DNA from: Thermoproteota archaeon
GTDB taxonomy: Archaea > Thermoproteota > Thermoprotei_A > Sulfolobales > Ignisphaeraceae
Direction of reading: 5' to 3'
NCBI GenBank assembly: GCA_030550585.1
Contig: JAUQPB010000003.1
Coordinates: forward strand, 196,333-260,332
Length of the DNA stretch: 64,000 bases
This document shows positions 60,721 through 64,000 of this stretch, in pieces (the first letter of the stretch is position 1; the number at the start of each line of letters is the position of its first letter). The notes beneath the pieces were generated by a model that saw only the letters and a list, made by a program, of their open reading frames with translations, did no database searches and was not told where the DNA came from. A program made the position numbers and the translations under genes.

Positions 60721-63003
60721 ATGAAACAGGCTACTATTATAGAGCTTGGCGAGCCCGCTATAACTAGTTCATGCAAACTCACTTTATACTCTCATAAATG
60801 GAGTTTGGTTAGAGTATTCGACCAAAACCTGATCGCGCATCCACATATCATGCTTTACTCAGACCTTCTTCTCTTCTCAAATGCACCATTTATACGAAGA
60901 TACGGCGACAAAGCCAGGGCTTATAGCATTGTGTTAGACAAAAGAGGTGAGAGATTTCAACTGGATTTGAAGAGCTACACCAGTATCTCGACATATACAG
61001 AGGATAGCAGCATCTTATTGCCACTCCGTGGAGACATGGCTAGAGTTCTCCAGTTTCGAATTGATGGAACGGTGAATGAATATGATGTCGAAAAACCCCA
61101 TTACATCTTGCCGCAAGGAGATCACAGCTATGTTGTAAAAAGCCGAAATATTCTCGCTATCGCTAGAAGCCCTACAACAATAGACGAGATAACACAGTGC
61201 AAAAACGTGTTTTACCGCGACTACAACGGTTACAAGATGCTACAATGCGTGTCAAATGATGAGAATATTCTTGTTGTTAGCGATGGATTATACGGGTACT
61301 CGCTTCAGCATAGAAAACGTGGATTTACCGTAGAAAGCGCTAGCATGGGTTTGAACACTGTAGTATTCAGCTCTCAGAGGATGTCACTACTAGTTCACTT
61401 CTCTAGAAGAGGAGAAGACGTCTATGAAATCCCATTTAAATTAGATGATACAGTATTTATTGATGATAATACTTGTCTTGGTAGAATCAACAATAAGCTT
61501 GTTCTTTATAGCCCCAACAACGATTCGCTAAAAATTTTGAAGAATGTTGATAGAGGAACTAGTATACACCATGATGCTTTACATGGTTATATAGCTTTGA
61601 AAAACGACAATGAAATAGAGCTAATCGACGTAGACAACAATTTGCTGTTATCTATAAAGATGCCTGCAAAAGATGTTGTGTTGGTAGATTCTAAGCTGAT
61701 TTTGCTAAATAGGAATAGAATCATTGTATACAGCATAGAGACAAATGATAAAAGGATTCGCTTAGAGAAGCTTCGCGACGCCCCAACAACTCTCGTACAC
61801 TGCATTGCAGCTGATTCTCACAACATTTTGTGTATAGATTTGCTGGGCAGGCTCCTTAAATTAGATGTTAGAAGCCTTGTCAATTCTATTCCAAAAATGC
61901 AAGTTCTCCGCAGCGACAAAGGCATTGTAGCGCTGTTGAAGCTTTTTTCGCCTGGCTACCCCATAAAGTTTTGGCCTTCAGACAATCTCAACCTCGAATT
62001 GAAAAAACTTGATGCATACTCTACAATGGTGTCGATCAAAGACGGTTTAAGGAATAAAGCCATTCTCACAGTAAGAGCAAATGGAGTTTTAGATTCCTTG
62101 GAAAAAACCTTGAAAGCCTTTTGGGAAACACATGAAGTGGAGATAGAGAAGCCCTTGGTTTTCGATCTTATAACAGCCTTGAATGGAACTCCACTTGCCT
62201 GCAACGAGAGCTTGCGCAAAAGTCTCATGAAATGCCTCAACAAAGCACCAGCTCAGGAAAACCATAAAAACAGTATATTGACGTGTTTTGTTGATGTTAC
62301 CCAAGCAGAGGATTCTGTGAAGCGCCACCAGATGGTGTTTATCAATAAAGTTAGGTATATTAATATAAACCCTGAGATAAGAGCCGAAACAAATTCTTTG
62401 TGTCTAGCCAATGCCCAGATACCTGATTTAAAGGGTGTTGATATTGGCATAGAGGTTCTATGCGACGACAAGCTCTATACCCTTAACAGCGGCTGTGTAA
62501 AGATAGATGGATGCAACTACATCAAAATGCTCGTCTATGCTAAACTTACGAAAGATGGCTGTGTTGTTGAGGTGCCAATAAGCTATGATGCTGAGATCCA
62601 TACAAATTTCTATGATGGCTCATCTATTGTGGTAAGGCGTGGACTTGGATACCATATACTAATTCCCGTAAGATGCTACAGTATCGAATCGTCGAGGATC
62701 GTGTACAAGGATGGTCTAAAGCTAGAGGTTGTAGCTAGAAACAGGTGCAGGGACACTGCATTGACTATAGCTCTATCCGATAGACGTATAATAATCCCAC
62801 CAGAAACCGAAATTGCTGTGGAAACCCCTCTTGATATAGACGATATTATCAGGAGCTACAAGGAACTTGTAGTTATTGAGCCCTCCGGCCCCAAATTGAT
62901 TGTGTTTCCCCTAGAACTTGGTTCCCTACTTGGCGTTGCTCACAAAATCACTTTAAAAGTCTCTGCTTTAACTGGGCTGAGAAGATGGTTAGAAAAACCT
63001 TAG
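60721..63003 (+). CDS. Large beta-rich hypothetical protein (possible beta-propeller plus Ig-like domains)
   Basis: 760-aa ORF with short beta-strand periodicity; no catalytic motif recognised. Confidence 0.55.
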   Translation: MKQATIIELGEPAITSSCKLTLYSHKWSLVRVFDQNLIAHPHIMLYSDLLLFSNAPFIRRYGDKARAYSIVLDKRGERFQLDLKSYTSISTYTEDSSILLPLRGDMARVLQFRIDGTVNEYDVEKPHYILPQGDHSYVVKSRNILAIARSPTTIDEITQCKNVFYRDYNGYKMLQCVSNDENILVVSDGLYGYSLQHRKRGFTVESASMGLNTVVFSSQRMSLLVHFSRRGEDVYEIPFKLDDTVFIDDNTCLGRINNKLVLYSPNNDSLKILKNVDRGTSIHHDALHGYIALKNDNEIELIDVDNNLLLSIKMPAKDVVLVDSKLILLNRNRIIVYSIETNDKRIRLEKLRDAPTTLVHCIAADSHNILCIDLLGRLLKLDVRSLVNSIPKMQVLRSDKGIVALLKLFSPGYPIKFWPSDNLNLELKKLDAYSTMVSIKDGLRNKAILTVRANGVLDSLEKTLKAFWETHEVEIEKPLVFDLITALNGTPLACNESLRKSLMKCLNKAPAQENHKNSILTCFVDVTQAEDSVKRHQMVFINKVRYININPEIRAETNSLCLANAQIPDLKGVDIGIEVLCDDKLYTLNSGCVKIDGCNYIKMLVYAKLTKDGCVVEVPISYDAEIHTNFYDGSSIVVRRGLGYHILIPVRCYSIESSRIVYKDGLKLEVVARNRCRDTALTIALSDRRIIIPPETEIAVETPLDIDDIIRSYKELVVIEPSGPKLIVFPLELGSLLGVAHKITLKVSALTGLRRWLEKP

Positions 63004-63623
63004 CAAGTTTCTTCAACCGGATAAAACTTTTAGAAAATGCTATCGAAAATCTCTATACAATCCCAAGACTATTCTCGAAGAGAATCTATGGAAAGGATTT
63101 TAGATGCGAAGAGATTAGAAGAGGTGTTTATAGATGCTATAGCCGTTCAGAAGCGAGGCTAGTTGCATTGTACAGCCTAGAAGATTCATTTGCTAGAATA
63201 GAGGAGATGGAGTACATCGATTTTCTCACCCATCTAAAGAGATATATCAGCACCTTGGCACCGCCAGGCTGCTCACTAGTATCAATATCTAGTGTGACTC
63301 CCTTAAACCCTGATAGCTATTTGTCGAAGATAAATAGCAAACTTCAGATGAAACTTGTTGAGTTGGAGAGCGACAAAGCAAATACCAGACTTAGAAGCCT
63401 GGTTGAGCGGCTCATGGAAATTAGGAAACGTGTTCTAGGCGGGGTGATACCCATAGAGACCTCTGTCCTTGCAGCAGTCATATGCCGAGACACCAAAGCA
63501 CATGAAGATATGCTTGCAAACATGCCTCAAGTGAGCAAGCAGATTTTGGGTATCTCGCTAAAGAGTGTTAGAGACTTTGAGAAAATAAGTCAGCTAATCA
63601 ATTTTCGTCAATGGCAAGCATAA
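62985..63623 (+). CDS. Putative N-terminal domain of a VirB4/HerA-like ATPase
   Basis: Beta-alpha-beta plus coiled hairpin; ends ...LINFRQWQA, overlapping the +1 frame of the ATPase. Confidence 0.55.
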   Translation: MVRKTLASFFNRIKLLENAIENLYTIPRLFSKRIYGKDFRCEEIRRGVYRCYSRSEARLVALYSLEDSFARIEEMEYIDFLTHLKRYISTLAPPGCSLVSISSVTPLNPDSYLSKINSKLQMKLVELESDKANTRLRSLVERLMEIRKRVLGGVIPIETSVLAAVICRDTKAHEDMLANMPQVSKQILGISLKSVRDFEKISQLINFRQWQA

Positions 63624-64000
63624 AACAAGTTTGCTAGACTCATTCGCTTACCTAATGCCACTCACCTTACCGCCTTCACAAACCATGGGCTCTGAGAACA
63701 GCGCTAACGATGTGTATATAGGCGTGGATCTGGTTTTTGGCAGGAGGGTGTCTTGGAATGTAGAGACATCTCCATCCCAACACATATTGGTTGTTGGACC
63801 AACAGGTTCAGGGAAAAGCATAGCTGTTTCAGTACTGGCATCAAGACTTGGCAGAAGATTTGATGCCCCGATAACAATATTCGATATTAAGAATGAGTAT
63901 GGGGATTACATGAGGCTTTTTCTAGGTAGACCCTTCAATGTGTGGAACGTTATGCATACCCCCATACCCCTATGTACCTGTGGTGACGATGAGAACTCCC
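63604..64000 (+). CDS. HerA/VirB4 (DUF87/CedB-like) ATPase, partial; missing from the ORF track
   Basis: Frame open from 63598: FVNGKHKTSLLDSFAYLMPL...VYIGVD...HILVVGPTGSGKS...IFDIKNEY; first ATG at 63655. Confidence 0.85.

Follow-up and report, generated by a model that had tools for sequence, protein, structure and literature searches.

A split cedB gene in two archaeal families and a probable programmed +1 ribosomal frameshift at its UUU_YGN junction

The split gene and its identity

The gene described here lies at the end of a 64,000-nt stretch of DNA (the window) from a Thermoproteota archaeon of the family Ignisphaeraceae (GenBank assembly GCA_030550585.1, contig JAUQPB010000003.1, 196,333–260,332). 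It comprises two open reading frames (ORFs), the second in the +1 frame relative to the first, and in our best reading of the sequence comparisons the two ORFs form one gene, cedB, whose product would be the VirB4/HerA-like ATPase that serves the Ced (DNA-import) system of crenarchaea (Table 1). At the junction, the codons AAT (63600–63602), TTT (63603–63605) and CGT (63606–63608) are followed closely by the stop codon of the first ORF. The +1 frame opens at 63598, contains a TTG at 63631 and an ATG at 63655, and encodes the motifs VYIGVD, HILVVGPTGSGKS and IFDIKNEY. A preliminary description, made from the letters of the window, had given these ORF ends, junction codons, candidate starts and motifs, and all of them were reproduced to the base. 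Its assignment of the product to the VirB4/HerA-like ATPases was also right, and can be sharpened to CedB by the match to NCBIfam model NF041017 and by structure matches.

The second ORF is cut by the end of the window, and its stop codon lies further along the contig at window-equivalent 64711–64713 (L001 4631..5713). With a slip at TTT, for which the slip tetranucleotide TTT-C occupies 63603–63606, the predicted product has 207 + 368 = 575 residues.

Table 1. Features of the cedB locus, in window coordinates
Feature	Position	Strand	Basis or remark
cedB 0-frame ORF, 212 aa, VirB4/TraC-like N-terminal domain; product of standard decoding	62985..63623	+	ATG 62985, TAA 63621-63623
TAA stop of the +1 frame; upstream edge of the 23-nt window for any productive shift	63595..63597	+	sequence
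Shift site AAT-TTT-CGT, proposed E-, P- and A-site codons	63600..63608	+	TTT-YGN in 39/39 split loci
TAA stop of the 0 frame, 5 codons past the A-site codon; ends the short product	63621..63623	+	sequence
cedB +1-frame part (linker and HerA/VirB4-type ATPase domain), 368 codons	63607..64000, 710 nt more past the window end	+	contig ORF, CedB model match
Upstream ORF, 760 aa	60721..63003	+	ORF call; 19-nt overlap with the start of the cedB N-terminal half

To assign the gene, family, domain and structure tools were applied to the two halves or to natural fused orthologues. The ATPase half matched the Pfam domains DUF87 (the HerA central domain) and AAA_10, and the NCBIfam equivalog NF041017 ('DNA import protein CedB') with 135.8–137.5 bits over model positions 224/235–587 of 590. 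The split gene is the only good CedB match in its genome (137.5 bits, with the runner-up at 40.9 bits), and the search with the CedB model found no second cedB there. The N-terminal half matched no Pfam or NCBIfam family, the CedB model included. In an ESM Atlas structure search, however, its residues ~17–209 aligned to the N-domains of VirB4, TraC and CagE with TM scores of 0.51–0.58; the feature score of 0.87 was taken as a lead only. The curated cut-off of NF041017, 700 bits, is reached by neither half of the window gene, the halves having been scored rather than the joined product; elsewhere the model gave 828.8 bits for an orthologue of family f13 and 324.4 bits for a fused orthologue of family f4. 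In a tree of the ATPase half the window gene sits in a clade with the f13 CedB sequences (SH-aLRT support 99). Walker A and a D-E-x-W block, which we read as Walker B, are invariant in alignment A1.

CedB has been described as a VirB4/HerA-like ATPase driving the uptake of DNA by the Ced system, and its N-domain is homologous to part of the VirB4 N-domain (PMC9905601, PMC11868833). The window gene is orthologous to the CedB of Sulfolobales and shares with it a VirB4-like N-domain joined to a HerA/VirB4 ATPase domain, but the characterised cedB genes are single ORFs, whereas that of the window is split. A role in DNA import, together with CedA, CedA1 and CedD, is predicted for the window CedB. 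The same genome carries a separate, intact CedD-like ORF of 549 aa (224 bits, under its cut-off of 600), and this paralogue contains no in-frame TTT-YGN.

A conserved junction in 39 split loci

To find related loci, 41 genomes were searched with the N-terminal half, giving matches in 30, including all 24 other sampled genomes of the window's own family (f1). The open frames were only 189–233 aa in f1 and 587–602 aa in 3 genomes of other families, and identity to the window protein fell to 23–30% in the remotest split loci. A profile of the ATPase half was then run over 325 genomes of the order, 234 of which gave a match at E up to 1e-15. Around the match, the open frame is 346–405 aa in all full-length f1 matches and in 13 of the 14 genomes of a second family with split cedB (f6), and 564–637 aa in f3, f4, f7, f12 and f13; two f1 matches, both in G024, are cut by contig ends. 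The fourteenth f6 genome (G047, 63% complete) has a weak match of 104 bits in a 580-aa frame, which we read as a paralogue.

In total 39 split loci from 9 genera were dissected, 26 from f1 (that of the window included) and 13 from f6. In every one of them the ATPase half lies at a +1 offset from the N-terminal half, and the junction holds an in-frame TTT followed by YGN (CGT 13, CGG 9, CGC 7, CGA 4, TGT 3, TGA 3). The preliminary description had named as support a conserved TTT-CG(N) with a constant +1 offset in orthologous loci; the offset held throughout, and the A-site codon is CGN in 33 loci, TGT in 3 and TGA in 3. It had likewise counted as support natural in-frame fusions in other lineages, which are present as collinear single ORFs of 564–637 aa in five or more other families, and had named an uninterrupted ORF in close relatives as a contrary result, of which no case was seen.

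The base after TTT is C in 33 loci and T in 6, the codon before it is AAT in 24, TTT in 14 and AAA in 1, and the first codon of the +1 frame always starts with G. When the loci are anchored on the site, the G and every T of TTT carry 2.0 bits of information, the preceding T carries 1.83 and the Y 1.38, compared with ~0.1–0.5 bits nearly everywhere in the flanks from −45 to +75, so that T-TTT-YG alone is conserved. Since dS is 0.4–2.3 between even the closest pairs, with synonymous sites near saturation, and identity falls as low as noted above, inheritance alone does not explain these bases; set against dS, the information content shows more conservation at the synonymous positions of the site than the protein would call for. 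The recurrence of the same offset and of TTT-YGN in every split locus is, on this comparison, more than chance.

Counting from the A-site codon inclusive, the 0 frame stops within 0–9 codons (mean 3.4), whereas the same off-frame inside the ATPase ORFs stays open for 10.1 codons on average, and 0 of 5000 resamples were as low as 3.4. The short 0-frame tails past the site are not conserved, while the +1 frame codes conserved residues immediately after it. In 17 of the 39 loci the +1 frame is open for just two codons before the site, its stop lying three codons upstream of the post-slip TTY, and in L009–L011 only 8 nt separate the +1-frame stop from the TGA that follows TTT. From these comparisons we consider it very probable that these lineages produce full-length CedB through programmed +1 ribosomal frameshifting at UUU_YGN.

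Three other explanations were weighed. Looked at in one genome alone, the locus would look like a decaying pseudogene or an assembly error. However, intact halves are present in 39 genomes of 9 genera, both halves have dN/dS of 0.05–0.16 (10 pairs), the ATPase motifs are invariant, and the window's genome has no second cedB. An assembly indel, against which the preliminary description had advised checking the reads, is likewise not seen: in Logan contigs of hot-spring metagenomes (4 runs, 3 studies) no run has an indel at the site, with the site bridged at depths of 104x, 206x and 180x in 3 runs (2 studies) and 3x in the fourth (third study), although contigs can mask rare variants. These contigs include strain variants with 8–16 substitutions, none of which falls within 63531–63644. 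A search for RNA runs containing this stretch gave none. Decay or misassembly is refuted as far as comparative data can do so, and we give it almost no credence.

Gene fission, in which the N-domain and the ATPase would be separate polypeptides and the ATPase would be translated from a canonical or near-cognate start of its own or by termination-reinitiation, accords with the presence of ATG, GTG or TTG before the Y-I-G-x-D strand in 33 of the 39 loci (in the window, the TTG and the ATG given above). It also accords with the ATT, a possible weak start codon, that the +1 frame reads across the site in most f1 loci. Yet in four loci (L017, which belongs to the single-contig genome G015, L022, L023 and L045) the ATPase frame lacks any ATG, GTG or TTG ahead of Walker A, which goes against the independent start that the preliminary description had raised as an alternative, and in six there is none ahead of the Y-I-G-x-D strand, the first conserved strand. 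Where starts exist, their positions are scattered from −23 to +98 codons around the site; in L003 the conserved residues L-L-D-S-x-A-Y precede the first of them; and the ATT is missing in f6, G019 and L021. Free-standing genes, moreover, would not keep the offset at +1 in each of the 39 loci, nor T-TTT-YG in the face of saturated dS. We regard fission as unlikely.

The frame could also be repaired in the RNA, by RNA-polymerase slippage on the T run, by editing or by removal of a short archaeal mRNA intron. The run is T6 in the 13 f6 loci and in G019, and T4–T5 in the other 25 of the 26 f1 loci, and pre-mRNA splicing in crenarchaea is known from cbf5 (PMC2738675). However, no conserved helix that could belong to a bulge-helix-bulge intron was seen, and the split genes contain no extra segment relative to the fused orthologues. 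Homopolymer runs prone to slippage are ~7–9 or more in length; T4 is far shorter, no long homopolymer occurs at the site, and polymerase slippage would leave unexplained both the invariant Y-G and an A-site codon that is rare or a stop. Repair at the RNA level appears quite improbable to us, and ribosomal frameshifting is the reading pursued below.

The history of the split was examined in the ATPase-half tree (88 rows, quick search; the truncated loci L021 and L025 were left out), which places 23 f1 rows beside f3, and f6 together with one f1 genome (G019) beside f4 and f13, with deep nodes supported at only 81–92. Holding all split forms together cost 12.6 log-likelihood units and was not rejected (p-AU 0.17; 38 representative rows, LG+G4), and by this AU test one origin of the split is not distinguishable from two. 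The G019 locus (L027; f1, genus g4) has a TTT-TTT-CGA junction of the f6/f3 type, and its ATPase half groups with f6 (support 91). Its placement could be due to gene transfer between families, to retention of an older form of the site, or to a long-branch effect.

The proposed slip and the fused orthologues

The four CGN codons (CGG, CGC, CGA and CGT) are the four rarest sense codons in the window's genome (G+C 41.3%), at 0.8–1.8 per 1000 codons and together 9% of Arg codons, which bears out an earlier impression that CGT is rare. CGT itself has a frequency of 1.8 per 1000, and TGC and TGT are fifth and eighth rarest. In the other genomes codon usage was measured only within the cedB genes, where CGN makes up 17–21% of Arg codons. 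ARAGORN identified one tRNA-Phe(GAA) gene, with an intron, and single tRNA-Arg genes for the anticodons CCG, UCG and GCG. The tRNA-Phe(GAA) gene is adjoined by that for tRNA-Cys(GCA) (G000:C4:446215-446543, outside the window), with an intron predicted by ARAGORN in both; these two tRNAs decode the P-site TTT and, in 3 relatives, the A-site TGT.

We propose that standard decoding would yield a 212-aa VirB4-like N-domain protein, terminating 5 codons past the site. With tRNA-Phe (anticodon GAA) on UUU at 63603–63605 in the P site, the A site would await the very rare Arg codon CGU; in relatives it would hold another CGN codon, UGU or the stop codon UGA. Filling of the A site would be slow, whether by a release factor or by a rare tRNA for Arg or Cys. 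During this pause tRNA-Phe could re-pair one base forward on UUC, or on UUU where the next base is U. Since re-pairing of tRNA-Phe(GAA) needs a pyrimidine as the fourth base, the conservation of Y at that position is accounted for, and the change from wobble pairing on UUU to Watson-Crick pairing on UUC would favour a P-site slip by this one tRNA. Translation would resume at GUC and continue through the linker and the ATPase domain to give a protein of 575 aa. The slip would require neither RNA structure nor a Shine-Dalgarno-like stimulator, and among the 39 loci no conserved Shine-Dalgarno-like element was found upstream of the site, where only codon-level signals were seen. Recoding may in this way set the ratio of the short N-domain protein to the full-length ATPase, as the preliminary description had suggested.

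Several observations weigh against programmed frameshifting. The proposal is built on sequence comparison, and the 39 split genomes are kin, not independent trials. There is no RNA structure signal on either side of the site (mean folding z −0.38 over the 39 loci), and no Rfam family was matched (0 matches at E up to 1, L001 3500-5800). Across the genome there is no depletion of the TTT-CGN pair, which occurs 58 times in 1530 crude ORFs where 59.3 would be expected, and three other in-frame TTT-CGN occur within the split cedB genes (21,941 codons); it follows that TTT-CGN alone is not strongly shift-prone, or that its efficiency is low. The related influenza A PA-X site, UCC_UUU_CGU, directs a +1 shift of only ~1% in eukaryotic systems (PMC3498833). 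Finally, the ATG, GTG or TTG codons before the Y-I-G-x-D strand lie at −23 to +38 codons in the 33 loci that have them, and in those loci alone the start-codon test would permit the ATPase half a start of its own.

A genome-wide scan for TTT-YG junctions of the same ORF geometry returned 6 positions in 4 loci, against 1–7 for control motifs. The three loci other than cedB were set aside as chance geometry: an amidohydrolase gene with its own ATG, a membrane-protein gene beside an antisense ORF, and a repeat array. The last of these (L100, outside the window at G000:C7:59300-60400) encodes the peptide L-S-T-P-F-W-E-F at regular spacing on both strands and is probably a direct-repeat array of the CRISPR kind.

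The single-ORF orthologues were compared next. The set comprised 51 genes (38 from f3, 6 from f13, 3 from f7 and 1 each from f4, f12, f10 and f2), and these are collinear with the split genes across the junction. At the position aligned with the shift site, 26 of the 51 (25 from f3 and the one from f4) encode F-F-R, and in 26 of 26 the codons are TTT-TTT-CGN, never TTC or AGR. Elsewhere in the same genes Phe is TTT in 44% and Arg is CGN in 21% of cases, from which TTT-TTT-CGN would be expected in ~4%. No F-F-R is present in the other 13 f3 genes (L073–L076, L078, L080–L086 and L088, of genera g64, g65, g72 and part of g69), which lack the motif as well, or in any of the 12 genes of f13, f7, f12, f10 and f2. 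Because it is missing from these genes, the motif is evidently not needed by the protein. The motif-bearing state was probably ancestral to the support-99 clade of f1, f3, f4, f6 and f13, and the comparison of these genes points to several losses of the motif.

One fused orthologue (587 aa) was modelled with AlphaFold2 from a 26-row alignment; the model has a mean pLDDT of 81 and two confident domains separated by a low-confidence linker at residues ~196–240; F-F-R occupies residues 195–197, the end of the last helix of the N-domain. With this model, the best Foldseek matches were TrwK/VirB4 of plasmid R388 (E 1.4e-18) and further structures of the VirB4 and HerA kinds.

In the fused genes the +1 frame stops 2–16 codons past the site, so that a +1 slip there would yield a protein consisting of the N-domain only. 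The f6 junction (genus g11), TTT-TTT-CGG-NTT-TAA/TAG, resembles the fused TTT-TTT-CGN-GGN-TTY minus two bases. We read this as a slippery, slow site older than the split, at which a later indel would have made the slip obligatory for the full-length protein. More tentatively, and with considerable doubt, we hypothesize that UUU_CGN is an old two-way recoding switch at the CedB domain boundary. Split and fused genes would then yield an identical pair of products, each layout with the other's default reversed, and a small indel would flip a lineage from one to the other. The ratio of the products might follow how much Arg-tRNA(CGN) is available or how tRNA-Phe is modified, tying DNA import to physiology. 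With the motif kept in frame in fused orthologues, the production of an N-domain protein and the full motor from one gene becomes a testable idea.

The surroundings of cedB are partly conserved. The 760-aa ORF that overlaps its start has no significant Pfam or NCBIfam family, but is kept directly upstream of the N-terminal half across f1, with tblastn matches in 19 of the 20 loci L002–L021 (one of them in the window's own genome) and, in a second set of 11 loci, at L023, at identities down to ~22%. It is a likely operon partner of cedB and may work with the Ced system as a partner confined to this lineage. The translations of the downstream ORFs resemble, by eye, a ribosomal protein L15e and a GTPase, and these neighbours suggest a chromosomal setting. 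An intron-mode ARAGORN call of a 'tRNA-Arg(CCG)' with a 1334-nt intron (window 62248–63658, G000:C3:258580-259990) spans the whole cedB N-terminal half and ends ~50 nt past the shift site. It was judged a false positive, as was a call of the same sort on a different contig, where the intron would be 1362 nt long; the genome has an ordinary tRNA-Arg(CCG) gene at C3:242797-242874.

Comparison with known frameshift systems

According to a 2021 review, the sole demonstrated programmed frameshift in an archaeal cellular gene was the −1 shift of fucA1 in one Saccharolobus strain, a Mg-chelatase case had been suggested, and +1 shifting had been suggested only for a haloarchaeal virus (PMC8211752). 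HerA and conjugal-transfer clusters go unmentioned in the main text of the GeneTack survey (PMC3711429). In the main texts of the literature searched (supplements aside) no report of a split or frameshifted cedB was found, and the search found no conserved +1 frameshift in an archaeal cellular gene. If the proposed frameshift is real, it would be a phylogenetically deep case of archaeal +1 recoding, spanning two families and 39 genomes, and would carry a known kind of recoding into a domain of life and a gene family that are new for it. The minimal UUU_CGN signal, shared with PA-X and the amalgaviruses discussed below, would be suggested to work on archaeal as well as eukaryotic ribosomes, and the gene would offer a simple natural cassette for studies of frame maintenance in archaea. 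Current gene callers would record such a cedB as truncated or absent, distorting surveys of DNA-exchanging archaea.

The closest archaeal precedent is fucA1 of Saccharolobus solfataricus, which is expressed by programmed −1 frameshifting (PMC8211752, PMC1616953). Like the split cedB it is a chromosomal gene in two ORFs with single-ORF homologues in other species, but its shift is −1, on A-AAA-AAT, and is confined to one species or strain lineage, whereas that proposed for cedB is +1 and occurs in two families.

Among +1 systems, the bacterial prfB gene for RF2 shifts at CUU_UGA_C (PMC12421855). The 3 of 39 split cedB loci with TTT-TGA likewise have their A site occupied by a stop codon. In prfB the shift is aided by an upstream Shine-Dalgarno-like stimulator and serves RF2 autoregulation, whereas the 39 split cedB loci have no conserved upstream element and no evident feedback logic. 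The yeast retrotransposon Ty1 provides a eukaryotic hungry-codon +1 site, CUU_AGG_C, and resembles the proposed cedB site in a P-site slip caused by a rare Arg codon and in needing no RNA structure. For the outcome, a parallel is the tau/gamma pair of Escherichia coli dnaX, in which one gene gives a full-length and a truncated protein sharing their N-terminus; there the ribosome shifts by −1, and it is the short protein that comes from the shift.

The same motif is used by viruses of eukaryotes. In plant amalgaviruses a UUU_CGN +1 motif, conserved over many species, joins two ORFs into a fusion protein (PMC5052127), as we propose for cedB, but these are double-stranded RNA viruses of plants, the fusion is of the capsid-polymerase type, and the host is not archaeal. 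The parallel with influenza A PA-X drawn in the preliminary description is borne out by the published account, which explains the slip of tRNA-Phe by wobble pairing on UUU as against Watson-Crick pairing on UUC, and which predicted a class of UUU_C sites with restricted A- and E-site codons (PMC3498833). The cedB site shares with PA-X the UUU to UUC re-pairing in the P site, a rare CGU or CGN codon in the A site, the absence of downstream structure and a hint of E-site preference. The two differ in that PA-X belongs to a eukaryotic virus translated by eukaryotic ribosomes, where the shifted product is a minor accessory protein, whereas in cedB, a cellular archaeal gene in which UGU or UGA may replace CGN, the shift would be the only route to the full-length enzyme.

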